This document shows, piece after piece, positions 2,444 to 15,552 of a stretch of DNA of 31,879 bases. Within the stretch, counting starts at the first letter, position 1; each line of letters opens with the position of its first letter. A model generated the notes under the pieces. The model was not told where the DNA came from and did no database searches. It saw only the letters and a program-made list of their open reading frames with translations. The stretch comes from Candidatus Heimdallarchaeota archaeon (GTDB taxonomy: Archaea; Asgardarchaeota; Heimdallarchaeia; Heimdallarchaeales; Heimdallarchaeaceae), in NCBI GenBank assembly GCA_016840095.1, contig JAEOSZ010000060.1, forward strand, positions 1 through 31,879. Reading direction: 5' to 3'. The position numbers and the translations under genes are program-made.

Positions 2444-4390
2444 TTAGACTATTCCAATTTTTCGTTTTCTAATTCTAGTTATAAGTTTTGAAATCCCTAA
2501 AATTAGAACAAGAGTTAATATCATAGCTCCTGTATCTATGTTTGTTTCAAGTGAATAGTAGTATCCAGCTGCTTCTAACCATTCAATAGCAGTATCTAGA
2601 TCATAATTGTATTTGATGATATCATTGTAATAGTAGAATGGTTGAGATGGATAGATTACACTGTGAGATACAAAAGATTCTCCATCATAAAAAACCTGAT
2701 TTATTTCATCTCTGTCAATAGCATAGTTTATTGCTTTTCTTACTGCGCATGCTTTTGTGTAATTTTCTTTTCCTTCTTGTTCTAGATATCTAAAGTTATC
2801 ATCACCTCCAATGAAGGGTCTTCTGAGATTATAAGCCATAAATAACATTGAGGTGTCATTGAATGAATTTACTAAGTATTGTTGATCTGCTTGCATCATC
2901 TTTCTCTCTCCTGTGAAAGTTGTTATATCAGCAATATCTAATCTTCCAGCTTCGAATTCTGCTAGTTCAGCTGAGAGATCAGGAATAATACGAACGGTAA
3001 TTGTATCAATAAACGGAGATAACCCAGTTTCGCCAGTTATTGCACCTCTACCATGCCATCCATCCCATCTTTTTAACACTGTTTGGTAGTTTTTGATACG
3101 ATAATCTAAGCTGTATGGTCCACAACCAAATGCTGAGGTACTGTAAGCTATCCATTCTGGGGTGTTGATCATGTCTGCATAGAGCCCTGTACATTCAACT
3201 CCACCTTCTGTGTAAGTAACAGTTGGATCTGTTGAGTTTAAGAAGAATTCTGGTAAGACCTCCCATGTTAGTTTTGCCCACATATCTGCATAAGGTTCAA
3301 TTTCAACAGTTTCTGGATTTCCATCAATATGAATGTGGAATGATAATTCATCTACTGGATCGACATAACAGTCTGAAATCCAATCATGATGATGAGTGGT
3401 ATCACTAATCTCTGAATTAGCCCAGGTCAAATAGGTAAATACTGCGTCTTTTGCAGTTACTTGATGACTGGTACCAGTACTTGGTAAACCGTCTTTCAAA
3501 CCAACCATATATTCTCCAGCAGGAATGTCTCCTAGTGGTATAGAGTCATCATCTCTTGCTGTAGAGTTGTAGGAGGGGTTCCAGTAAACATCGTCCATCA
3601 TCCAAAATTGGAAATGTGTTTCGTCAATTTGATCCCAATCAGATACAAGTCCTGTCTTTACAGGAGCAAAGTCTGGATTCATCTGGAGAATTGGTTCAAA
3701 CAGATAACTTGCAATTGTTGAACTAGAACTATCAGCTGAAAACAATGGGTTCAAATCTACCCAGTTTGCATCTGCAAAGTTAAATTCTGTTAAATTGTCT
3801 TGACCACTGTGATAACCATCATAGCTCATGTATGGAAGAGAATCCCTTAATCCCCATCGCACGTCATACCCAAGAGTGTTAGCCCAAACAACGTTGTACC
3901 CCTTCTCGGTGAACAAAGGGAGAATTGGGATGATTTTGTCCATAACAAGATTCTGCCATTCATATAGATATGTCTGTCTTGCACTTGGGTCAACCATAGT
4001 TTCTTGAATCATTTGCATTTCTTCTGATTCATTTTGATAAGGTATATCTGGTCCAAGTCCAAATATGTTTAGAGAACCGTCAGACATCCAAATAGCTTTA
4101 GCACCTGGATATGCTCCACCACCACCTAAACGAAAAATTCCTATATCATAATCGTGTGTTATTGGTATTACCGGAAAATAAGACCATTCCTCTACTTTGA
4201 CTACTACTTCAATACCTATGTCTTTCAAGTCGTATGCGATGAATAGAGCAATATCAGGTCTAATTCCTCCTCCAACATGGTTGAAGACTAATCTCGCTAT
4301 AGGCTCTTGTGAGTTTGCTCCATACTTGCTACCAATACTGAATGTTAACACTAATAATGTGATTAAAGCAAACCACTTTTCTCTTCTCAT
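2444..4390 (-). CDS. ABC transporter substrate-binding protein, family 5 (OppA/DppA-like), circularly permuted, with N-terminal signal and C-terminal membrane anchor
   Basis: SBP5 motifs LNP, VTAKDAVFTY, GCGPY, VRKAINYAIDR, YNYDLDTAIEWLEAAGY and DLKDIGIEV are present. It has a hydrophobic N-terminus and a C-terminal TM helix followed by RIRKRK. Confidence 0.88.
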   Translation of the reverse strand: MRREKWFALITLLVLTFSIGSKYGANSQEPIARLVFNHVGGGIRPDIALFIAYDLKDIGIEVVVKVEEWSYFPVIPITHDYDIGIFRLGGGGAYPGAKAIWMSDGSLNIFGLGPDIPYQNESEEMQMIQETMVDPSARQTYLYEWQNLVMDKIIPILPLFTEKGYNVVWANTLGYDVRWGLRDSLPYMSYDGYHSGQDNLTEFNFADANWVDLNPLFSADSSSSTIASYLFEPILQMNPDFAPVKTGLVSDWDQIDETHFQFWMMDDVYWNPSYNSTARDDDSIPLGDIPAGEYMVGLKDGLPSTGTSHQVTAKDAVFTYLTWANSEISDTTHHHDWISDCYVDPVDELSFHIHIDGNPETVEIEPYADMWAKLTWEVLPEFFLNSTDPTVTYTEGGVECTGLYADMINTPEWIAYSTSAFGCGPYSLDYRIKNYQTVLKRWDGWHGRGAITGETGLSPFIDTITVRIIPDLSAELAEFEAGRLDIADITTFTGERKMMQADQQYLVNSFNDTSMLFMAYNLRRPFIGGDDNFRYLEQEGKENYTKACAVRKAINYAIDRDEINQVFYDGESFVSHSVIYPSQPFYYYNDIIKYNYDLDTAIEWLEAAGYYYSLETNIDTGAMILTLVLILGISKLITRIRKRKIGIV

Positions 4391-4439
4391 AGTTAGTAAA
4401 TTATGTGCAGAAACACTAATAAAAGTTTAGAGAATAAGT

Positions 4440-5717
4440 TCAAAATCTATATTGAAAAGGTTGAATCTCTAGATCTTGCTTTTTTCTGATTTTTTTCACT
4501 TCTTTACTTATGAATCTTTTACCTTTTCCTTTTGGCATATACTTCTTAGAGATTTCATAATAATTGAGTGCATCGTTCAAATTGACATCAGATTTTCTTT
4601 TCATTCTTGCTAAGTTAAGATTTGCTACTACATTAGATGGATCTATTCTTAAACTGTGTTTCAGCAACTTCTCTGCTTCTTCATAGTTCCCTTTGTAAAA
4701 TTCTTTTATTCCTTGATTTCCTATCCTTTGTGACATCAGATTAACTGCATCAAAGCTAAAGAAGTTAGTAGATTCTTTATCTAATGTTAACACATAAGCA
4801 AACATCTTCTCATAGTTTTCTTCCTTGGTTAAGCAAATTTGTATTTTGTTCACCCAATGAGAGTAAAATGAGGATATTGAATGTATTAGTTTCAAAGGAT
4901 TCTTTCTTCTTTTAAGCCAAATTGTCATCAAAATTCTATGTAATTCAATATCCTTGAAGAAATCAATAGCTTTTGCATTAATTTTCTTAATAATTTCATC
5001 TGGAAACATACTCAAGAAGATATGTCCTAGTATTGGATTGATTGTAATAAAACTTGCACAATAGAAAACAATATTTTCGAAAGAGAAAAATTTCTCCAAA
5101 CTGTCAGGTAAGTTGTGCAAATTGTTAATGCAATTATTTTCAATAGTATCAAGAAATTGAGGATCAGGATTTTCTAGTTGAGAAAAGATTCTTGTTCTTA
5201 GAGTTGAAATGAAATGTCTTTTTTCAAAGAATTCAACATAAGCTGGCTTTTGAGCTAAAACTCTTAATCCTTTTTCACTCAAGTAACTTCTTTGTCTTTT
5301 TTTTCTGATTTTGATGTAACCTGTCCTTGTTAATGTTCTTCTAAGAAATAGATATGTAAAACCTATTTTATGTATATTTTGAAAATAATCAACTCCAAAA
5401 AGATATTTCATAGTAATTAATTGTTTTCGATAATTCTTGAATCTCAGTTTTTTTACAGATTTTGCTAAATTGGGTGTTTCAATATACAGTTTCCCTTCTG
5501 GTTTTAGTACTCTGTACCATTCTGCTAGGATATATGGGATGTGAATAATGTCAAAATGCTCTATGATATGTGATGCTTCTATAACATCCACACTGTTATC
5601 TTCATAGGGAAGTGAAGAAACATCTAGAATTTTATCAGCTATTTCTTTTTCTTCTAAATCTATGTTCACATAACCAGGTTTGTAAAAAATTCCACATCCT
5701 AGATTGAGTTTCAGCAT
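4440..5717 (-). CDS. Class I SAM-dependent methyltransferase (Methyltransf_11-like) with a C-terminal TPR repeat
   Basis: Motifs LNLGCG (motif I), VNID, LPYEDNSVD, SHIIEH and EWYRVLKPEG. The C-terminus GIKEFYKGNYEEAEKLLKHSLRIDPSNVVANLNLA is TPR-like. The start is likely the ATG at 5717 (AGAGGA upstream), just after the rSAM stop. Confidence 0.85.
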   Translation of the reverse strand: MLKLNLGCGIFYKPGYVNIDLEEKEIADKILDVSSLPYEDNSVDVIEASHIIEHFDIIHIPYILAEWYRVLKPEGKLYIETPNLAKSVKKLRFKNYRKQLITMKYLFGVDYFQNIHKIGFTYLFLRRTLTRTGYIKIRKKRQRSYLSEKGLRVLAQKPAYVEFFEKRHFISTLRTRIFSQLENPDPQFLDTIENNCINNLHNLPDSLEKFFSFENIVFYCASFITINPILGHIFLSMFPDEIIKKINAKAIDFFKDIELHRILMTIWLKRRKNPLKLIHSISSFYSHWVNKIQICLTKEENYEKMFAYVLTLDKESTNFFSFDAVNLMSQRIGNQGIKEFYKGNYEEAEKLLKHSLRIDPSNVVANLNLARMKRKSDVNLNDALNYYEISKKYMPKGKGKRFISKEVKKIRKKQDLEIQPFQYRF

Positions 5718-5727
5718 GTTATCCTCT

Positions 5728-6777
5728 CTAATTCTTTCTTTGTCTTTCTCTTCTTGGCACTTTAACTTGAAATAATTGCTCTTCAATTCTTCTTAAGCAG
5801 AAAGGTGAGTTGTGCATTTTTCCTGTTAGATGTAATGAAGTTGAATTACATCCTCCTTCACAGCTTGAACCATAAAAACAATTAATGCAATTTTCTCCTA
5901 GTTGTGATTTGGAGAAATTTCTATTATAGGAAAAGGAATTTGGATCGTTCCAGATTTGAACTAAACTCCTCTTTCTAACATTATCTTCAATTAGTTGGTT
6001 GCTTCCAAAAGTCAAGCATCCAGAAACTCCTCCATCAGAGGTTATTCCAATAGAATTTATTCCTGCAGTACATCCTTTCCATGTTTTGTTATTAGGTAAC
6101 AAATGTGAATGGTAACCATAACAATGAGCTCCTACAACTGAAATTCTCTCTGAATGTTTTGAACTCCATTCTTTAACAATAAACATAGCTGAAGCATAAT
6201 ATTCCTCCTTACTTATGACAAGTGAAGGATCGAAATTTCCAAACGGCATTCCAATTTGTAATTGCCAATTTACTTTTTTTCCTGCAAGAGTGTCTTTAAT
6301 ATCCAATAGTTCCTTGAAGTTTGTTTTACTTAGTGTAGTAATTATAGTAGTTTGAATACCTTCTGCTAAAAGCAAATCAATTGCTTCTAGTGCTACTTCA
6401 AAAGAACCTTCTCTTCTTATATAATCATGAGTTTTTTTTGTTCCATCCAGAGAAACACCAACAACATTTGGTTCTAAGATAGATAGGTCTTTGATAACAT
6501 TAGGGACTAAAATTCCATTGGTTACAAATGCTAAGTTCATTCCTAAATCCTTTATACACCAGGCTATATCATACCAATCCTCTCTTACAAATGGTTCCCC
6601 TCCCATTAAGCAAACATTTGTACAATTAAGTTCAGCTAAATCTTCACAAACTGTAAACCATTCATCTGATGACAGTTCATTTTCCCTTGCCATACCAGCA
6701 CTTGATCCACAATGTTTACATTTCATATTACAAGCTAAAGTGATCTCAAGAATAACACCATGTAAGTCGTACTTCAA
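5728..6777 (-). CDS. Radical SAM/SPASM maturase, splicease (PlpX / Y_X(10)_GDL-associated)-like
   Basis: CxxxCxxC in EITLACNMKCKHCGSSAG, plus GGEPF. SPASM cysteines: WKGCTAG-...-SGC, CINCFYGSSCEGGC (Cx2Cx5Cx3C) and NSPFC. TTG start preceded by GGTGA. The rSAM/SPASM call is firm. The subfamily call comes from remembered motif resemblance. Confidence 0.9.
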   Translation of the reverse strand: MKYDLHGVILEITLACNMKCKHCGSSAGMARENELSSDEWFTVCEDLAELNCTNVCLMGGEPFVREDWYDIAWCIKDLGMNLAFVTNGILVPNVIKDLSILEPNVVGVSLDGTKKTHDYIRREGSFEVALEAIDLLLAEGIQTTIITTLSKTNFKELLDIKDTLAGKKVNWQLQIGMPFGNFDPSLVISKEEYYASAMFIVKEWSSKHSERISVVGAHCYGYHSHLLPNNKTWKGCTAGINSIGITSDGGVSGCLTFGSNQLIEDNVRKRSLVQIWNDPNSFSYNRNFSKSQLGENCINCFYGSSCEGGCNSTSLHLTGKMHNSPFCLRRIEEQLFQVKVPRRERQRKN

Positions 6778-6783
6778 GACATC

Positions 6784-7221
6784 TCACCCATCGCAATTAT
6801 CTTTTTCAAAGACGTTGTATAATATAACTGCACTTAATGGTGTGTATACATCTTTGAATATTAGAAAGAAACTAACTATTGACAAAGTAAGATTTAGTAA
6901 TACAATAAAAGTCATTAGAATCCTATCTTTCATTAATCGCTTCCCTGTAGCAAATGATAAAGCTAAATTAGCCGAACCTATACCAAATAGAGTTAAAGTA
7001 CCCCAAGTGTAAGTTATTTGTACACCACTATGAGGATAAGTTGAATGTGCACTCTCCCAACGTCCAAATACAACACCAAGAAGTGAAGAGAGAAGATAAA
7101 AACCTGCTTGAATTATAGAAAAGATCAATCTTCTATAGAATATTTGCCTTCTTGAATATATGACTTCAGAAGAATCTATTTCTAATATCTTTGATACTTC
7201 ATCCAGCTTTTCTCTATCCAT
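6784..7221 (-). CDS. 3-TM membrane protein, paralog C; putative rSAM substrate (C-terminal ILYNV)
   Basis: Shares EKL[DE]E, RxxF, IQxG, SxLGxxFGxWE, YP and a terminal xxY[GN]V with the two upstream paralogs. Three hydrophobic segments. Confidence 0.8.
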   Translation of the reverse strand: MDREKLDEVSKILEIDSSEVIYSRRQIFYRRLIFSIIQAGFYLLSSLLGVVFGRWESAHSTYPHSGVQITYTWGTLTLFGIGSANLALSFATGKRLMKDRILMTFIVLLNLTLSIVSFFLIFKDVYTPLSAVILYNVFEKDNCDG

Positions 7222-7334
7222 TTCTTACACTTACTCATTAACACTTTCAATAGCTTGCTTTATTCACCTTGATATATGCACATTCACTATTAAAACTTTG
7301 TTAGAAATACTAATTTTGGGTTTGGTTGATTAAA

Positions 7335-7787
7335 TCATTCTTCTCTTTCATGAACATTGTACATTGGAACCATTGTCATTGTTCCTTGCTGATCTCCTAA
7401 AACAGAATGGTAGATAAGAAAGAATGAGAGGAATGATATTCCAAGATTGATTAAAGGAATAATGACTCCAAGAAGCTTATCTATTCCAAGTTTATTCTTT
7501 GTTGTAATTGTTAAGGTTAAATTCCCCCCACCTAAACCAACTAAAGTAATTGAACCCCAAAAATTGGCTCTTGATATTCCACCAAAAATACCATAAGGAT
7601 ATTCTGTTGAGCTAACCTTTTCCCAATAACCAAATGCTAGACCGAGAAGTGACGAAGAAATAAAGAATCCAGCTTGAATGAGAGGAAAGACCATTCTTCT
7701 AAGTGTTCTTTTTGTCTTTGAACCAACTATACTTGAAGATTGCATTTCAAGCAACCCTGAGACTTCTTCAAGTTTTTCTTCGTTCAT
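7335..7787 (-). CDS. 3-TM membrane protein, paralog B; putative rSAM substrate (C-terminal VPMYNV; loop YPYG)
   Basis: Same conserved blocks as its neighbours, with an ATG start. Confidence 0.82.
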   Translation of the reverse strand: MNEEKLEEVSGLLEMQSSSIVGSKTKRTLRRMVFPLIQAGFFISSSLLGLAFGYWEKVSSTEYPYGIFGGISRANFWGSITLVGLGGGNLTLTITTKNKLGIDKLLGVIIPLINLGISFLSFFLIYHSVLGDQQGTMTMVPMYNVHEREE

Positions 7788-7932
7788 TTATAACACGTCT
7801 TTGGTTTGAGATTAGAAATTTTGATTAATCATGTAAATTACTTTTTTCTTCCCATAGATACTATATTAGTTGAAATGACGTTAATAAAGATTATTGAAAA
7901 ACCTAGCAGATAATTCAATGAGAATTGGATTT

Positions 7933-8379
7933 CTACTTCATTTCTTGATTATATACTCCGTATTTAGGTACTACGCCTATCATTGATTCAGTAACTGTTT
8001 CAATATGAAAGTAAATTAAATAGAATGATATGATAGAAAAGACAGTAGTTAACAAACTAATAATTAAAATTTGTAGTTTTTCTAAAGCTATTCTTCTTTG
8101 ATTTCTTATTGAAATTATAGTATTACCAGCTCCAATTCCTAATAAAACTATAGGTGCCAAATAATAAGCTCTAGGAATAACTCCCCAAGGATAAATTGAT
8201 GGATCCTGGTTTTCCCATTTTCCAAATGCAAATCCTAAAATTGAATTTATACCAAGAATACCAATTTGAATAAAAGGAAAAATCAATCTTTTCAGAAATT
8301 TTTTCATTTTTGGTTCTATTATTTGAGAAGACTCTAATCCAACTAATTTAGCTGTTTCATCGAGTTTTTCTCTTCTCAT
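7933..8379 (-). CDS. 3-TM membrane protein, paralog A; putative rSAM substrate (C-terminal VPKYGV)
   Basis: Same conserved blocks. It carries a canonical XYG motif near the C-terminus, and a TATA-like TTTTATAAA lies about 25-30 nt upstream of the ATG. Confidence 0.82.
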   Translation of the reverse strand: MRREKLDETAKLVGLESSQIIEPKMKKFLKRLIFPFIQIGILGINSILGFAFGKWENQDPSIYPWGVIPRAYYLAPIVLLGIGAGNTIISIRNQRRIALEKLQILIISLLTTVFSIISFYLIYFHIETVTESMIGVVPKYGVYNQEMK

Positions 8380-8429: not shown

Positions 8430-11400
8430 TCACAATGCTGCTTTAAGATATTCCCATGTATATCCTTTCTTTGAGGATACAATTTCTGAAACGTCTCCTT
8501 CAACAACTAAATATCCACCGTTTCTTGAACCTCCTTCAGGTCCAAGATCAATTATTCTATCTGCTTGTTTAATTATATCCATGTTATGATCAATTATAAC
8601 AACAGTGTTTTCTTCATCTGCTAATCTATGTATAACTTTGATTAGTTTATCTATATCATAGAAGTGAAGTCCCTGAGAAGGTTCATCGAGTAAGTAGATA
8701 CTCTTATCTTGTGTTCGTCTAGATAATTCTCGACTTATCTTCAAACGTTCTGCTTCTCCTCCAGAAATGGTTGTAGTTGGTTGTCCCATTTTTAGATATC
8801 CTAAACCTACATCTACAGCTAGTTGCAGCGGTTTGCGGATTTTCTCAATATTAGAAAACAGCTCAGTTGCTTCTTCAATGGTCATTTCTAGAATGTCGGA
8901 TATTGTCTTCTTTCTATACCTTGCTGAAAGAACATTTTTCTTGTATCGCTTTCCTTTACATAGTGGACACTGTATCCAAACATCCGACAAAAATAAGAGC
9001 TCTATTCTTCTCTCTCCAAGACCTCTGCATTCCGTACATTGTCCTTTTGATGTGTTGAAACTGAAGTGACCTGAAGATAATCCTTTTGCTTTAGCTTCAG
9101 GTAAATTTCCATAAAACTGTCTAATTTCATCAAATACTGCTAAGTAAGTTGCTGGATTAGATCTTCTTGATTTACTAAGAGATGATTGATCTACAATGAT
9201 CACTTTATCTAAATTTTCAAACCCTGATATTGATTTATGTTTTCCAACTTCAGTCTTCTTACCATGAATCTGTTTCTCTAAACTCTTTTGTAGAGTGTCT
9301 ATTACTAAGGAAGACTTACCTGCGCCAGATACTCCAGTTACTGCGTTAATTACACCTTTGCCAAATTTAACATCTATGTTTTTCAGATTATTCTGTGTTG
9401 CTCCTTTGATTTCTATAGATGACTCTATTTTTCTATTCTTCTTTGGAGTCTTAATTTTCTTTGTTCCTTGAATGTAACCTGCTGTTAAGATGTCGTCTCT
9501 TTCAAGTAACTCCTCTGTCGGTCCAATAGCTACTACTTCTCCTCCTTGATCTCCTCCCAAGGGACCGAGTTCAATTAGAATATCAGAATTCTTGATTATG
9601 ATATCATCATGTTCAACAATGATAACATGATTTGCATTATCTCGTAATTTTTTCAAAGTTGTTAGAAGCTTATCAATATCCCGAGGATGGAGTCCGATTG
9701 TTGGTTCGTCAAGCACGTATGTTACACCAATCAATCCACTGCCAATCTGTGATGCAAGACGAATTCTTTGAGCTTCTCCATTAGATAGAGTACTGGAACG
9801 TCTGTTTAGCGTAAGATAACTCAATCCTACATCAACAAGATATTCAGCTCTTTTCTTAAGCTCTACAAGAATTCTTTCTGCTATCTTAGTTCTTCTTTTG
9901 TCAAGCTTCAAATTAGTTAAGAAATCTTGGAAATCATCAACAGCGTATCTTGATAAATCATTAATTGATTTATTTCCTACTGTAATAGAAAGGACTTCTG
10001 GTTTGAGTTTTTTCCCTGAGCAATCTGGACAGCTATACTCACTGTAGTATTGATTCATTTTCTCTTTGCTTTTCCTTGACCAAGATGAATCTGTTTCTCT
10101 TTCCATCCAATTATCCCAGCGTTTAATTAACCCTTCCCATTCTCCTTTTCGTGTATATTCTGCAGATCCTCTTGATCTTTCTTGAGTAACTTTGATAGGA
10201 ACTTCTACACCTTTTGATCCATAGAAAAGCCCGTCCATCTGTTGAGGTGTAAAATCTTTCATAGGTGTATCTAATGTGAAACCAAAGTGCTTCCCTACAG
10301 ATTCTAACATGGATCTTCTCCACGATCGTGGATTAGTCATTCTCTGCGCTGAGTATGGACCTATAGCTCCTTCACTAATTGACTTATCCCAATCCTTTAC
10401 TATTTTTCTAATATCAAATTGTCTAATAACTCCCAATCCAGTACATGTTTGACATGCTCCTGAGTAATGATTAAAGCTAAATAATCTGGGGTGCATTTCT
10501 TCTGCTGCTTCAAAATCGTGATTTATACATTCAGCATAAATTGAGTAGGTGTGTTTGTTACCATTAAAATAAACCTCTGTTCTTCCCTTCCCTAATCCAA
10601 CAGCTGTTTCTACTGCTTCTGCTATTCTTGAAATGTTTTCATTCTTTATGCTAATTCTATCTAATACTACTGAAAGTGAACTTGATTTCTTTGCTTTGAT
10701 CTCTTCGTCAATCTGATAGTCTTTTCCGTCAATAACTACTCTATTATATCCTTGTTTTCTCAGCTCATTAATTGTCTTCTTGATATCCCTCTCTTCACCA
10801 TTTGACACAGAAGCTGCAACTATGATATTCTTATCTTTGTAGTCTTTTAAAATCAATTTAGCTATTTCATCTACTGTTCTGGACCTCAAAACAATATTAC
10901 ACTCAGGACAGTGAGGTATGCCTATTTTTGCGTATAGTAATCGTAAATAATCATAAATTTCTGTCGTAGTTGCTACTGTTGATCTTGGATTCTTTGAAAT
11001 CGAATGCTGATCAATCGCAATTGATGGAGTTAATCCAATAATATCATCAACATCAGCTCTTTCTGCTTTTGAAAGAAACTGTCTTGCATAACTACTAAGT
11101 GATTCAACAAATCTTCTTTGTCCTTCTGCAAATAGAGTATCAATTGCTAAAGAACTCTTTCCTGAACCGCTTGGACCTGTTATAACTACAAGCTTCTCTT
11201 TTGGAATATCTAGATCAATATTCTTTAGATTGTTCTTTGAAGCACCTCTAACATAGAGATAATTTGCTGGATCTAAATCATCCTCGTGAATGCTTCTCTT
11301 TCCTTTCTCGAAAGTTTTCACTTCATTGAATAATACTTTTCTAAGAGCTTGACCTGTATAAGACAATTCATTTTCTGCTATCTCTTCTGGAGTACCAAAA

Positions 11401-14180
11401 TCAACAACATAACCACCTTGTTCAGCTCCTCCTTCTGGACCCAAATCTAGCACATAATCACATGACTTGATTACATCTAAGTTGTGTTCAATTATTAGAC
11501 AAGTATTACCATTTGAAACTAATCTTTGAAGGACTGCTAACAGCTTCTTAATGTCTGCAAAACTTAATCCTGTTGTGGCTTCATCAAGTATATACAGTGT
11601 TTGTCCAGTAGCTCTCTTAGACAGCTCTCGACTTAGTTTTATCCTCTGTCCTTCTCCCCCTGAGATTGTTGTGCTTGGTTGTCCTAATTGTATATAATCT
11701 AACCCTACATCAACAAGTGTCTGGAGTATATTCCTAATTTTTGGAATGTTCTCAAAAACTTTGATTGCTTTACTAACAGTCATGTTTAAAATATCTGCAA
11801 TGGAATACCCAGAGTACTTGATCTTTAAAGTTTCATCATCGTATCTGTTCCCTTTGCATATCTCGCATTCAACATCTACATTAGGCAGAAGTGACATTTC
11901 TATTGTATTATAACCGTGTCCTTTACAAGCTTCACATTGACCTATCTTTGTGTTGAAGCTAAACCTTGTTTTTGTATAACCTCTTATTTTAGCTGTAGGT
12001 AGTGATGCAAACAGATCTCTTATGTGATCCATCACTTTGGTATAAGTTGCAGGATTTGATCTTGTTGTTCTTCCTATAGGTGACTGATCAATTACTACAA
12101 CTTTATCGATATTTTTTACTCCTTCGATCGCTTCATACTTCCCTTCTTTTCTATTACCATTATGCAACTTGTTTACTAAGATTGGGTACAATGTATCTGC
12201 GACTAAAGAAGATTTTCCACTTCCTGATACTCCTGTTACAGCTGTAAAGGCTCCTATAGGGATATTAGCAGTGATATTTTTCAGATTGTTATGCGATGCT
12301 CCTTTCAATGTGATGAAGGTTTCACTTTCTCTTCGTACTTTAGGTATTTCTATCTCATCTAAACCAAGTAAATATCTTGCTGTTATTGATTTCTTACCAT
12401 CTTCAGCTATTAGCTTCTCTGGTTCCTTTAAGAATAGAAATTCTCCTCCTTCATCACCAGCATATGGACCTAAATCTAGGAGTAGATCAGCTGTTCTCAT
12501 TGTATCTTCATCATGTTCTACAACTAGTAAGCTATTCCCCCCATCTCTTAGAGTTTGTAACGAGTGCAGAAGTTTCTCATTATCCCTATTTGCAAGTCCG
12601 ATACTAGGTTCGTCGAGGATATAAGTTACTCCTTGAAGTTTAGCTCCAATCTGTGTGGCTAATCTGGTTCGTTGACTTTCTCCTCCACTAAGTTCGTGTG
12701 CTCCTCTATCGAGTGTGAGGTAATGTAATCCAACTTCTATTAGAAATGATAATCTATTTCTTATTTCTTTGAGTAAGGGTTTAGCTATGATATTTTCTTC
12801 TTCATTCAGCTTAACATTGTCAAAGAATTCTAGACATTTATCTATCTCAAGTTTGTTTAGTTCGGAGATATTCTTGCCTTTAAATAGAACTGCTAGACTT
12901 TCTGGTTTCAACCTTTGACCATTACAATCAGGACATGTAGATTGATCCATTAGGCTCTCTAACATCTTTCTTCTGCTTTCAGCTGAAACTCTGTGATAAG
13001 CTTCAGATGTTAATGGAATCATTCCTCTCCATCTTGCTGTCCACTCTCCCTTTCCGCTCCAATTACTAGTTTGTGTATCCCAGCTCCATTCAAAGTGATA
13101 TTCTTGTCCCCCTGTTCCCCAAAGCATGATGTCTTGTTGTTCTTTAGTAAGTTTATTCCAGGGAATATTAATATCAAATCCATGTTCCTTAGCTATAGTA
13201 TTTAGATTTCTTAGTCCTAAAGAGATGTATGTGATATGTTTCTTAGTACTGGTCATTGTAGCAATTGCACCATCAGCAATCGATAGCTCTGGATGAGCTA
13301 CATATTTCTCTGGAACAATTTGAGAAATCTTTCCAATACCTCTACACCTCTTGCATGCTCCAACAGCTGTATTGTGAGAGAAATCTCTGGGATTAAATTC
13401 ATTAACTGCTAAACCACAAGTAGGGCATACAAGTTTAGTTGAGAAGATTCTTTGATCTTTTTCACCAATTATCTTGAGTCTACCAGTTGCTAATTCTAAA
13501 GCTAAGTTTACGCTATCAAGAATGGAAGGTTCATTCTTTCGTTCACATTTATTCCTGTCAACTATAATATCAATATCATGGGCTACATATCTTTCTAAGG
13601 AAACTTCTTCATCATCTAAATTTACTTCTTTGCCATCAATGATTAATCGAACATATCCTTCTTCTTTCCATTGAGCAAGTTCTTTCCTATACTCCCCTTT
13701 TCTTTGCTCAAACATAGGAGCAACTATCTTGATTCTCTGTCCATCAAAAGAAGCAAAAATCTGTTCGATAACTTGATCTGTGGGTTGTGCTTCAATCTTA
13801 ATTTTACAAGCTGGACAATGAGGAATACCTACTCTTGCATATAGAACACGCATATAATCATAAATCTCTGTAAGAGTTCCAACAGTACTTCTAGGGTTGC
13901 GAGATATAGTCTTCTGATCAATAGAAATAGTGGGTCGTAATCCATCTATGTGTTCAACATCTGGCCTATCAAAATTTCCTATAAACTGTCTTGCATAAGC
14001 AGAAAGTGTTTCCATGTATCTTCTCTGTGCTTCTAAGTAGATTGTGTCGAAAGCTAGAGAACTCTTACCACTTCCTGAGATACCCGTTATAACCACTAGT
14101 TTATCATGCGGAATATCCACTGAAACATTGCGTAAATTATTCTCTTGTGCACCCACAACTCTAATTGAATCCTTCACCAC
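8430..14180 (-). CDS. uvrA: Excinuclease ABC subunit A, double-length (two UvrA units fused in tandem)
   Basis: Four Walker A motifs ([32 protein letters not shown]) and four signatures ([32 protein letters not shown]). It has duplicated QRRx[MV]ExLSxYARQF and NPRSTV motifs and multiple CxxC zinc modules. The start is likely the GTG at 14180 or 14177 after AGGTG. The 14318 start would overlap the divergent MFS gene. Confidence 0.95.
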
Positions 14181-14283
14181 AGCAGACACCTGAACTTGTT
14201 TCAGAAACCTATTTTCAACTCTTGATTTTAGTATATAAAGGTGGAGTTTTGCTAAAAAACTTATAAAGAAGTATGTGTTTTCA

Positions 14284-15552
14284 ATGGTTATGAATTCTGT
14301 AGGAACAACTGAATACAAAGTCTATGGATATCGTTGGATTGTTTTGCTTTTGTTTGGATTTGCTACACTGATTAACCAGATTATCTGGATAACTTTTGCT
14401 GCTATCACTCCAAAAGCTATGGACTTCTATGGAAAAACAAAAACAACTCCAATATTCATGCTCTCGTTGGTATTCATGTTAGTATACATTATTATGAATA
14501 TCCCTGCTGCATTTGCAATAGATAAATTTGGTTTAAAATGGGGTACAGGAATAGGTGTTATATTAACTGGTGTTTTTGGAATCCTAAGAGCAGTTTCAGA
14601 TCAATACCATTGGGTTTTGATTTTCCAGATTGGATGTGCTATTGGACAACCATTTCTCCTAAACTCTTTCACCAAAGTATCTGCAAATTGGTTTGGTGCT
14701 GAAGAAAAAGCTCTTGCAACAAGTTTAGGTACTGCATTTGTTCTACTAGGTGTTTTACTTGGTATGTTCATTACTCCATTTCTCGTACCAGGCACTGATT
14801 TAACTCTTATGCTTTACATCTATGGTGGTATTGCCCTCGCTATGATGGTGATTTATTTGATTTTTGTTAGAGATAAACCTCCAACACCTGCTAATGCTTA
14901 CAGTGATGTCGTAAAAACTTTCGATTTAAGAGGAACCTTCGATCTGTTCAAGAACAAAGATTTCAACATTTTACTCGTATTATTCCTATTTGGTGCAGGA
15001 ACCTTCAATGCAGTGTCAACAGTTATGGCAGATCTTTTCCATTCAATCTTTGATAAAACTCTAGGACCTTTAGTTGCAGATGATCTTTATGGTATTTTAG
15101 GAGGAATTATGATAGTTGGTGGTATTGCGGGTGCAATAATCCTCTCAACGATTTCAGATAAAATCCAGAAGAGAAAAAGGTTTCTTATAATCAATGCAAT
15201 CTCAGGAACAGTTCTGACACTAGCATTCTTCATTGTGGAGAAGTATGTAGCTAACTTTGTTATTCAATATGCGCTTCATTGCGTTATTGGTTTCGTCTTC
15301 GGTTTTCTGCTTATTTCTGCGCTACCTGTTGGACTGACTTTCGCTGCTGAAATAACTCACCCAATGCCAGAAGAAACGTCTAATGGATGGTTGATGTGGG
15401 TAGGTCAAGTTGGAGGAGTAATTTTAATAATGATCGCTATGTTTGGTATACAAAGTGATGTATTCAACTTTATAATTTATGCAGCAATTATGTTCATAAC
15501 TATAATTTTCTCATTCTTTATGAACGACTTAGATGCTTATAAGTTAAAATAA
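14284..15552 (+). CDS. MFS transporter (FLVCR/SLC49-like subfamily)
   Basis: About 12 TM segments. Motifs YKVYGYRWIVL, DKFGLKW, GQPFLLNSFTKVSANWF, PPTP, SDKIQKRK and AAEITHP. The start is the ATG at 14284 or 14290. Confidence 0.88.
   Translation: MVMNSVGTTEYKVYGYRWIVLLLFGFATLINQIIWITFAAITPKAMDFYGKTKTTPIFMLSLVFMLVYIIMNIPAAFAIDKFGLKWGTGIGVILTGVFGILRAVSDQYHWVLIFQIGCAIGQPFLLNSFTKVSANWFGAEEKALATSLGTAFVLLGVLLGMFITPFLVPGTDLTLMLYIYGGIALAMMVIYLIFVRDKPPTPANAYSDVVKTFDLRGTFDLFKNKDFNILLVLFLFGAGTFNAVSTVMADLFHSIFDKTLGPLVADDLYGILGGIMIVGGIAGAIILSTISDKIQKRKRFLIINAISGTVLTLAFFIVEKYVANFVIQYALHCVIGFVFGFLLISALPVGLTFAAEITHPMPEETSNGWLMWVGQVGGVILIMIAMFGIQSDVFNFIIYAAIMFITIIFSFFMNDLDAYKLK

Follow-up and report, generated by a model that had tools for sequence, protein, structure and literature searches.

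A conserved archaeal cassette of tyrosine-tailed small proteins, a radical SAM/SPASM enzyme related to tyramine spliceases, and a methyltransferase

In this study we analyzed a 31,879-nucleotide stretch of DNA from Candidatus Heimdallarchaeota archaeon (contig JAEOSZ010000060.1, assembly GCA_016840095.1), hereafter the window, in which five minus-strand genes between positions 4440 and 8379 encode three small proteins (precursors A, B and C), a radical S-adenosylmethionine (SAM) enzyme with a SPASM domain (rSAM), and a methyltransferase. Our results show that this gene set recurs as a unit in Asgard and other archaea and in some bacteria, that the small proteins preserve a tyrosine in their C-terminal tails, and that the rSAM is a relative of the tyramine spliceases. 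It is very probable that the enzyme modifies the tail tyrosine; that the reaction is the excision of tyramine, which is argued by analogy with the nearest characterized relatives, is a proposition we regard as evenly balanced. A preliminary description of the region, made from the sequence alone, had proposed a splicease-type system whose substrates are three integral membrane proteins, and its layout of five open reading frames (ORFs), all on the minus strand, stands at the positions given in Table 1.

Sequence signature of the small precursor proteins

The three small proteins of the window are paralogues of 148, 150 and 145 amino acids (aa), within the range of about 145-150 aa first reported, and share 34-37% pairwise identity. 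Their tails are divergent except for V137, Y140 and V142 (precursor A numbering), which are identical in all three, and the convergence on VPKYGV (A), VPMYNV (B) and VILYNV (C) that had been noticed earlier was confirmed, these motifs ending 6, 5 and 8 residues before the stop, respectively. In an alignment of 72 precursors with a mean column identity of 17%, just three columns are invariant (Y63, P64 and Y140), whereas more than 90% of the sequences preserve V142. Since the tail tyrosine is invariant amid such divergence, its conservation is not attributable to chance.

An exhaustive profile search of 1.84 billion representatives retrieved 420 precursor clusters at E <= 1e-3, 259 of them at E <= 1e-10. 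The tail motif is present in 144 of the 146 best representatives examined, and the Tyr-Pro motif in 134 of them. The residue that precedes the tail tyrosine is free (K, L, M, R, A, E, D or Y); the following position (+1) is Gly in 53-65% of the family and otherwise N, S, D, E, Y or A, with Asn in about 14-15% of the members; position +2 is Val in about 70-80%, and position +3 is Tyr or Phe in about 70-80%. At the N-terminus, the family has a conserved helix with the consensus K-L-x-x-x-G-x-x-L-x-V-x-x-x-D-I. The small proteins match no curated family of Pfam, NCBIfam or PADLOC at E <= 0.001. The features listed in the preliminary description included the tail motif and omitted the Tyr-Pro loop, the N-terminal leader-like helix, and the conserved, obligate partnership with the methyltransferase. 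As a separate observation, one Thermoplasmatota precursor (L004:5488-5994) has its last helix and tail duplicated in tandem, with two copies of ...FGQAIKYNVY... and hence two candidate target sites.

Kinship of the radical SAM/SPASM enzyme

The rSAM matches Pfam Radical_SAM (2e-22) and SPASM (2.9e-07), and its neighbor matches Methyltransf_11 and, weakly, TPR, in agreement with the domains first assigned to both. The CX3CX2C motif is formed by C16, C20 and C23, and these, along with seven further cysteines, are invariant in 16 aligned relatives. When ranked against NCBIfam, the enzyme scores best with the two splicease models, TIGR03913 (181.1 bits, cut-off 591.75) and TIGR04103 (168.3 bits, cut-off 725), followed by TIGR04133 (135 bits), NirJ and AhbD (121 bits), and WgkB and MftC (118 bits); DynA, like WgkB a crosslinking enzyme, also ranks below both splicease models, at 80 bits. 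The same two models come first in all 16 relatives (best E-values 2e-69 and 1.6e-65, next model 1e-47), so that throughout this set they outrank the housekeeping NirJ and AhbD models. It is important to consider that the scores lie far below the splicease cut-offs, and the enzyme is consequently a relative of TIGR03913 and TIGR04103, not a member. The earlier assignment to the splicease type must be restated in this sense: the kinship holds, both in the model ranking and in the trees described below, and the membership does not.

True spliceases were collected from 401 genomes of the cyanobacterial phylum, reached via a psbA pattern and searched with TIGR04103. Members above the cut-off occur in 22 cyanobacterial genomes, those that were fetched scoring 770-860 bits, and graded relatives are found below it at about 630, 440 and 160-235 bits. 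A tree of 122 sequences (IQ-TREE, LG+G4, quick mode), rooted on other archaeal rSAM/SPASM paralogues, places the TIGR04103-type clade as sister to a clade that joins the archaeal family, Elusimicrobia and a low-GC group of Cyanobacteriota, with a Shimodaira-Hasegawa-like approximate likelihood ratio test (SH-aLRT) support of 91. The addition of six AhbD-like Thermoplasmatota proteins, all below the AhbD cut-off with 300-340 bits, gives the same grouping in FastTree (support 0.96, branch length 0.67) and unites the methyltransferase-associated enzymes at 0.93. Both trees therefore put the rSAM beside the TIGR04103 spliceases, and the second one sets it apart from the AhbD-like proteins. Five cassette-bearing archaeal genomes and 101 Thermoplasmatota genomes yielded no protein above the AhbD cut-off, and PqqE was not found in the three proteobacterial genomes searched.

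The alignment agrees with the trees. Fifteen columns are conserved in at least 85% of both the archaeal family and the TIGR04103-type enzymes and in at most 30% of the outgroup, including W10-E11, G24-S25, W171-Q172-x-Q174, G221-Y222, G239 and G253. The W171-Q172-x-Q174 signature is present in 96-100% of the archaeal family, of the sister clade with YG-repeat neighbors and of the TIGR04103-type enzymes, and in none of the 11 rSAM/SPASM proteins of the outgroup; the pair G221-Y222 shows a similar conservation, with few occurrences in the outgroup. A sequence search of the PDB gives SkfB, PqqE and SuiB-type enzymes as the closest solved structures (E-values of 1e-16 or worse), and no splicease structure was found there.

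Substrate likeness and predicted binding of the tail

The Nif11 precursors encoded beside true TIGR04103 enzymes end in ...PLYGVIWPP, ...PLYGVVISTDE, ...VPLYGVIISPE or ...LLYGVVFLKDQM. They carry X-Y-G-V near the C-terminus, in the same layout as the KYGVY, MYNVH and LYNVF of the window proteins, and a splice tag derived from PlpA2 reads ...GYGVVFP (PMC10533398).

To these comparisons we add two observations on neighboring groups. First, the low-GC sister-clade enzymes adjoin proteins with three or four repeats of M-K-Y-G-A, T-K-Y-G-I, [TE]-K-Y-G-[YF]-P or T-K-Y-M-P-P (L243:2296-2919 and L248:2038-2874, minus strand; L247:4160-4477, plus strand; L245:2483-2800, minus strand), which look like multi-core precursors of the splicease type that have no methyltransferase. 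Second, the cyanobacterial relatives of about 440 bits adjoin proteins of about 100 aa with a CxxC...CPxC zinc ribbon, a hydrophobic stretch that ends in a lipobox-like L-S-A-C, and Y-G-[VT]-P-P right behind this Cys (L238:2559-2873, plus strand; L241:4222-4509, minus strand). The latter are possible lipoprotein substrates of a splicease, and membrane- or lipid-anchored Y-G substrates may thus not be unique to archaea.

The rSAM (16-row alignment) was co-folded with full-length precursor A (72-row alignment), SAM and three 4Fe-4S clusters. The interface score ipSAE reached 0.81, 0.79 and 0.78 (median 0.79), as opposed to 0.00 in the three controls; the runs had at least 81% of their contacts in common, and the predicted local distance difference test (pLDDT) of the partner was at least 73. 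In a calibration, 58 of 80 solved complexes attained this mark, as did 2 of 110 mismatched pairs; the calibration is a rough guide in this case because it used neither own alignments nor ligands. The predicted interface consists of precursor A residues 131-147 only, placed in the rSAM barrel, and neither the N-terminal helix nor the Tyr-Pro loop has a confident contact with the enzyme. In the most certain of the predicted contacts, G141 is paired with rSAM positions 9, 56, 83, 85 and 217, V142 with positions 56, 83, 85, 105, 144, 146 and 172, and Y143 with positions 105, 144, 170, 172 and 215-217. The contacted positions, including 56, 58-59 and 83-85, line the barrel and flank the invariant G59-G60-E61, and Q172, Q174, G221 and Y222, which belong to the signature common to spliceases, lie within the interface. 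The model supports binding of the tail in the barrel, and AlphaFold2 (AF2) also places the XYG motif in the active site of known spliceases (PMC11414181).

The partner methyltransferase

The methyltransferase ORF (4440-5786) is open upstream to a TTG at 5786. The most likely start is the ATG at 5717 (MLKLNLGCG), since the resulting 425 aa match the homologues, which have 425-431 aa. In its AF2 model (METHYLTRANSFERASE; pLDDT 92), residues 1-160 adopt a class I fold, and 12-13 helices follow between residues 166 and 411. Among 28 aligned homologues, G7 and G9 of motif I, the acidic D20, E53 and H54 are invariant, and the preservation of motif I and D20 suggests that the enzyme is probably catalytically active. 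Foldseek searches of the PDB found generic class I methyltransferases only (about 190-230 columns) and no match to the helical C-terminal domain. LahSB, a methyltransferase of peptides that are made by the ribosome and modified post-translationally (RiPPs), was considered as a specific fold relative and discarded, its match being no better than the others. No homologue of the methyltransferase was found in the canonical or low-GC splicease loci examined, and this gene therefore marks the clade formed by the archaeal family and Elusimicrobia.

Conservation and distribution of the cassette

The rSAM family has at least 458 word-index matches with 50-87% identity. In the six contexts that were opened, one to three small proteins, the rSAM and a methyltransferase of 414-437 aa occur together in varied order and orientation. 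A scan of the GTDB species genomes with the rSAM gave 80 loci, whose neighbors were tabulated from their ORFs and hidden Markov model matches. These loci belong to Heimdall-, Hod-, Hel-, Hermod- and Thorarchaeota, including Promethearchaeum syntrophicum MK-D1 (L012), to Thermoplasmata, to one metagenome-assembled genome (MAG) each labeled Undinarchaeota and Nanohalarchaeota, to Elusimicrobia, and to one Chloroflexia MAG. A methyltransferase homologue adjoins the rSAM in nearly all of the 80 loci, and most archaeal loci of at least 49% identity have one to five precursor homologues. The search from the precursor side agrees with this result: one contig has the methyltransferase, six small genes and the rSAM, and in a second one a 431-aa gene precedes four or five small genes. 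Consequently, the homologues of the membrane proteins do accompany this rSAM and do keep the tyrosine motif.

At E <= 1e-60, 50 of the 251 Asgard genomes sampled have the rSAM; among those with a completeness of 90% or more the count is 20 of 89, and among other genomes of the genus to which the window belongs it is 7 of 20. This is the distribution of an accessory system, not of a housekeeping one. The Elusimicrobia enzymes are nested within the archaeal family in both trees, which suggests transfer of the rSAM between Archaea and Bacteria.

These data bear on two explanations that would leave the small proteins unmodified by the enzyme. According to one of them, the rSAM and the methyltransferase act on a small molecule or cofactor, such as a tetrapyrrole of the AhbD/NirJ type or a lipid, and the small proteins are partners, carriers or users. 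It draws on the 100-121 bits of the AhbD, NirJ and AhbC models, on the identity of the rSAM family across phyla, which is high for a RiPP maturase, and on the fact that membrane-protein substrates are unusual for RiPP systems. We consider this explanation improbable: the rSAM family stands apart from the AhbD-like proteins on a long branch, its distribution is patchy (20% of the sampled Asgard genomes, and similarly incomplete within the genus), the precursors are multi-copy and fast-diverging and yet keep the tyrosine invariant, the soluble variants of 46-65 aa keep just the two motifs, and the co-fold puts the tail in the barrel with controls at zero. Identity with a haem or haem d1 enzyme (AhbD TIGR04545, AhbC TIGR04546, NirJ TIGR04051) was rejected in its own right with 121 bits against cut-offs of 500-515, as was an AhbD-type identity, given the separation from the six AhbD-like proteins and the presence in only about 20% of Asgard genomes.

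The other explanation holds that the adjacency has no enzymatic meaning, the tyrosine motif being a sorting, anchoring or binding signal and the enzymes acting elsewhere. A tail that is probably extracellular in the mature protein would suit such a signal. However, the trio is kept across Asgard archaea, Thermoplasmatota, DPANN and Elusimicrobia, on both strands and in changing gene orders, and the precursors of the window genome are found solely beside the rSAM, so that this explanation seems to us very improbable.

Precursor architecture and topology

The AF2 model of precursor A (pLDDT 86) has a short N-terminal helix, three long helices (24-58, 70-92 and 101-134), and an unstructured tail (135-148). 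The three transmembrane spans attributed to the small proteins agree with these modeled helices and are likewise a prediction; a crude hydropathy scan of the family counts two spans in 87 members and three in 67, a split that arises because the middle segment is weakly hydrophobic. Lys/Arg clusters precede helix 1 and separate helices 2 and 3, and under the positive-inside rule this pattern would make the N-terminus cytoplasmic and expose both the Tyr-Pro loop and the tail on the outside. In this model, mature precursor A probably has its tail outside the cell. Relatives with a single span or a lipobox agree with such a location, and the weak middle segment, which makes the span count ambiguous, keeps this topology tentative. 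Two helices lie between both tyrosine motifs in the window proteins, an arrangement that would place them on the same side of the membrane; in compact relatives the motifs are contiguous.

The relatives also show how much of this architecture can be lost. Locus L031 of Helarchaeota encodes three soluble peptides of 46-65 aa that keep only GYP[FY] and P-x-Y-G-V-Y. In some Thermoplasmatales, soluble peptides of 60-80 aa consist of the leader helix and W/Y-P-G-G-R-Y-G-T-I-S-I-K-[DE]-F and adjoin two or three tandem rSAM paralogues. The Thorarchaeota precursors have one span followed by Y-x-P-G-x-x-Y-G-S-I-S-x-x-D-F. In Elusimicrobia, the leader helix is followed by a hydrophobic stretch that ends in a lipobox-like L-[AT]-A-C (in all five sequences read), by a linker, and by G-Y-P-C-G-T-R-Y-Y-T-V-S-x-x-D-F, and this leader may at the same time serve as the n-region of a signal peptide of the lipoprotein type. 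Because the precursors are soluble in Helarchaeota and some Thermoplasmatales (46-80 aa in all) and of the lipobox type in Elusimicrobia, the membrane part is dispensable, and the membrane tethering proposed earlier does not define the system. The Elusimicrobia precursors are located at L059:6533-6844, L073:6484-6795, L087:6528-6842, L049:3627-3953 and L054:6166-6600. The Thermoplasmatales loci with tandem rSAM genes are L038, L039, L040, L042-L044 and L046 (around positions 2500-6100), and the methyltransferase is not always inside their fetched flanks.

Proposed function and competing chemistries

Our interpretation is that the five genes would form a three-component maturation cassette for ribosomally made proteins that follows a RiPP-like logic. 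The small proteins would be the substrates, each with a leader-like helix, membrane helices, a Tyr-Pro loop, and a tail of the form X-Tyr-[Gly/Asn]-Val-[Tyr/Phe/His]. The rSAM would take the tail into its barrel and act on the invariant tyrosine, and the likeliest reaction would be that of its nearest characterized relatives, the tyramine spliceases. The methyltransferase may add a second modification, dock the leader helix through its helical/TPR domain, or both; with regard to its target and to leader docking, this is a guess. The modification would take place in the cytoplasm, before insertion or export, which is plausible for proteins of 100-170 aa, and the modified tail would then be displayed outside the cell on a membrane or lipid anchor, as is suggested by relatives in which a positively charged N-terminus is followed by one span or three, or in which a lipobox is present.

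Several observations weigh against tyramine excision or limit the evidence in its favor. Asn follows the tyrosine in two of the three window tails, where the canonical cores inspected are all Y-G-V, and elsewhere in the family this position may also be S, D, E, Y or A. The known splicease clusters that were inspected are devoid of such a methyltransferase, and tyramine excision needs no methylation, so that an obligate methyltransferase hints at a different or an additional chemistry. The splicing model assigns no role to the second invariant motif, Tyr-Pro. If the N-terminus is inside and there are three spans, the tail would be accessible to a cytoplasmic Fe-S enzyme only before insertion. 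In addition, the distance of the rSAM from the splicease models (181 versus 592 bits, 168 versus 725 bits) means that their function is not transferable by membership; the trees had no representatives of NirJ, PqqE, MftC, TIGR04133 or TIGR04053 and a limited outgroup; and solved rSAM/SPASM-peptide complexes, SuiB (5v1t) among them, may have informed the co-fold.

The variable Gly position, the obligate methyltransferase and the Tyr-Pro motif together make another tyrosine chemistry a serious rival. Here the cassette and the site would be the same, a different radical reaction would occur on the tail tyrosine, and the methyltransferase would cap the product; the options include a three-residue Tyr-x-Val cyclophane of the triceptide kind, a Tyr-Tyr or Tyr-Val link to the second motif, and an MftC-like oxidation of G-V-Y. 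The Y-x-V triplet with its near-invariant Val at +2 formally fits the aromatic-X-X motif of cyclophanes. The mycofactocin precursor MftA contains G-V-Y, a triplet that is also part of the tail Y-G-V-Y, and the MftC model (TIGR03962) reaches 118 bits. The tyrosine motifs stand side by side in the compact relatives of Elusimicrobia and Thorarchaeota (GYPxGxxY[GY]T), which suits a link, and an obligate methyltransferase with a free +1 position fits splicing poorly. Nevertheless, no cyclophane maturase is among the 25 best NCBIfam matches, and WgkB and DynA score below the splicease models; Y-G-V also occurs in true splicease substrates and the triplet is thus no argument for a cyclophane; W-Q-x-Q at the predicted interface is common with spliceases; and the tyrosine is not C-terminal, unlike that of MftA. 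On balance, we hold this rival to be possible and clearly less probable than splicing. Identity of the enzyme with MftC itself was discarded (118 against 265 bits, with the tail tyrosine not C-terminal and no RiPP recognition element (RRE) gene in the cassette).

A bolder version, which we think rather unlikely, is that the rSAM and the methyltransferase jointly build a methylated, crosslinked or quinone-like group from both tyrosine motifs, through a chemistry not yet described. As part of this version, the precursor helices in archaea, or a lipid in Elusimicrobia, would hold the group at the external surface of the membrane.

Comparison with known systems

The cassette most resembles the Type I spliceotide systems PlpX/PlpY/PlpA and PcpXYA of Pleurocapsa (TIGR04103 = IPR026482; Morinaka 2018, as cited in PMC11002830). 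Both have an rSAM/SPASM enzyme, those of Pleurocapsa belonging to the sister clade, with the W-Q-x-Q and G-Y signature, and several paralogous precursors beside the enzyme with a variable X in an X-Y-G-V near the C-terminus. The differences are that the window enzyme is about 70 aa shorter (349 versus about 420 aa), that no PqqD-like Y protein and no Nif11/NHLP leader were seen, and that the cassette has membrane precursors, a Gly replaceable by N, S or D, an obligate methyltransferase, and archaeal hosts. Like the binary spliceotide systems RhaX/RhaA, RcsX and RasX of Rheinheimera (PMC11414181, PMC11626197), it has no separate RRE protein, an N-terminal helix in the precursor, and a tyrosine motif that AlphaFold puts in the active site. 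Known spliceases have an activating helix, supplied by the Y protein or by the leader, bound to the enzyme (PMC11414181). The leader helix of RhaA is predicted to lie on the splicease, whereas the N-terminal helix of precursor A is outside the predicted interface and may serve the methyltransferase domain instead.

The rSAM/SPASM enzymes of low-GC Cyanobacteriota (L242-L253), whose host genomes are probably Melainabacteria-like, form the nearest bacterial sister clade, with 190-266 bits to the window enzyme. In contrast to the cassette, these systems have no methyltransferase and no precursor homologue of the archaeal type, and their precursors are soluble repeat proteins. Mycofactocin (MftC/MftB/MftA, TIGR03962) is similar in that an rSAM/SPASM enzyme acts on the terminal Val-Tyr of a small precursor and that a methyltransferase, MftM, belongs to the pathway; it differs in that the tail tyrosine of the cassette precursors lies 5-20 residues from the C-terminus, that the cassette has no MftB-like RRE, and that MftM methylates a sugar, its model matching the window methyltransferase at E 1e-3 only. 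Triceptides are three-residue cyclophane RiPPs made by rSAM/SPASM 3-CyFE enzymes. They share with the cassette an aromatic-X-X motif, multi-copy precursors and a SPASM enzyme, and are distinguished from it by the absence of any cyclophane maturase model among the best 25 NCBIfam matches of the window enzyme, for which the splicease models are clearly higher.

Locus layout and host genome

The genes are tightly packed (Table 1), with a gap of 6 nucleotides between the last small gene and the rSAM and of about 10 nucleotides between the rSAM and the methyltransferase. The source genome, a 3.44 Mb assembly that is 89% complete, has one such rSAM and only these three precursors, all beside it. The nearest relatives of the rSAM carry Asgard or Heimdallarchaeota labels. 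Among the sequencing runs listed, the window DNA is present in four DNA datasets (marine sediment and soil metagenomes) and in no RNA dataset. The upstream regions of the three small genes have no clear common element, and a scan for sigma-70 promoters and intrinsic terminators was uninformative, as its models are not suited to archaea. PADLOC gave weak viperin matches to the generic rSAM core only (62 bits) and none to the other cassette genes.

Table 1. Coordinates of the cassette genes and of the motifs discussed in the text.
Feature	Position	Strand	Basis
Precursor A, 148 aa: N-terminal leader-like helix, three predicted helices, flexible tail ...VVPKYGVYNQEMK	7933..8379	-	ORF, paralogue alignment, AF2
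Precursor B, 150 aa, tail ...MVPMYNVHEREE	7335..7787	-	ORF, paralogue alignment
Precursor C, 145 aa, tail ...AVILYNVFEKDNCDG	6784..7221	-	ORF, paralogue alignment
Precursor A tail, residues 131-148	7936..7989	-	Predicted rSAM interface 131-147
Precursor A motif K-Y-G-V-Y	7951..7965	-	72-sequence alignment
Precursor A invariant Y140 codon	7960..7962	-	72-sequence alignment
Precursor B tail motif M-Y-N-V-H (Y143)	7350..7364	-	ORF, paralogue alignment
Precursor C tail motif L-Y-N-V-F (Y135)	6808..6822	-	ORF, paralogue alignment
Precursor A Tyr63-Pro64, loop after helix 1	8188..8193	-	Invariant in 72 sequences
Precursor B Tyr-Pro codons equivalent to Tyr63-Pro64 of A	7596..7601	-	
Precursor C Tyr-Pro codons equivalent to Tyr63-Pro64 of A	7033..7038	-	
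Radical SAM/SPASM enzyme, 349 aa	5728..6777	-	Pfam, NCBIfam ranking, trees
Class I SAM methyltransferase with an all-helical domain of about 250 aa and a TPR-like end, 425 aa	4440..5717	-	Pfam, alignment, AF2

Directly upstream of the cassette, a minus-strand ORF of 1962 aa (8430-14318) comprises two complete UvrA units, and a double UvrA (1916-1919 aa) also adjoins the cassette in two related contigs. On the other side, a minus-strand gene (2444-4390) encodes a family-5 solute-binding protein of 648 aa (SBP_bac_5 in relatives) with an N-terminal hydrophobic stretch, a C-terminal hydrophobic stretch and a basic tail, and it is syntenic beside the cassette in relatives. Among the other contigs, L004 encodes at 9039-12236 an FtsH homologue of 1065 aa that, by precomputed annotation, contains an intein (Pfam hits to Intein_splicing and LAGLIDADG, located between its AAA and lid domains), and a further Asgard contig has a small GTPase gene of the Arf/Ras/Roc type two genes from the cassette (L007:4717-5238).

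Significance

To our knowledge, tyramine splicing has so far been demonstrated experimentally in bacteria. YG-rich PlpX-like enzymes have been reported from 189 bacterial genera, with 27 confirmed pairs (PMC10849128), and the splicease genome mining of Scott et al. 2022 is credited with 939 predicted systems (PMC10533398). One PNAS paper that speaks of clusters "in bacterial and archaeal genomes" cites this genome mining together with studies of graspetides. We found no publication on the archaeal cassette among the papers searched, and the genome-mining set of Scott et al. 2022 may include archaeal candidates.

The system is tractable, with a compact rSAM of about 340 aa, no separate helper gene seen, and putative natural substrates that are soluble and of 46-65 aa (L031). 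The presence of the cassette in the cultured Promethearchaeum syntrophicum MK-D1 would make the native product accessible to proteomics, and a leader-independent splicease that recognizes a tail would serve protein engineering. If the archaeal family does splice, backbone beta-amino-acid and ketoamide chemistry would reach Archaea as well as integral membrane and lipoprotein substrates, and a reactive group of the protease-inhibitor type would be placed on the surface of Asgard archaea, Thermoplasmatota and DPANN. With another reaction, the cassette would represent a new radical-SAM/methyltransferase modification with a very clean substrate signature; and should both tyrosine motifs be built into one group, the archaeal lineage nearest to eukaryotes would possess a new kind of warhead or cofactor that derives from a protein and lies on the surface.

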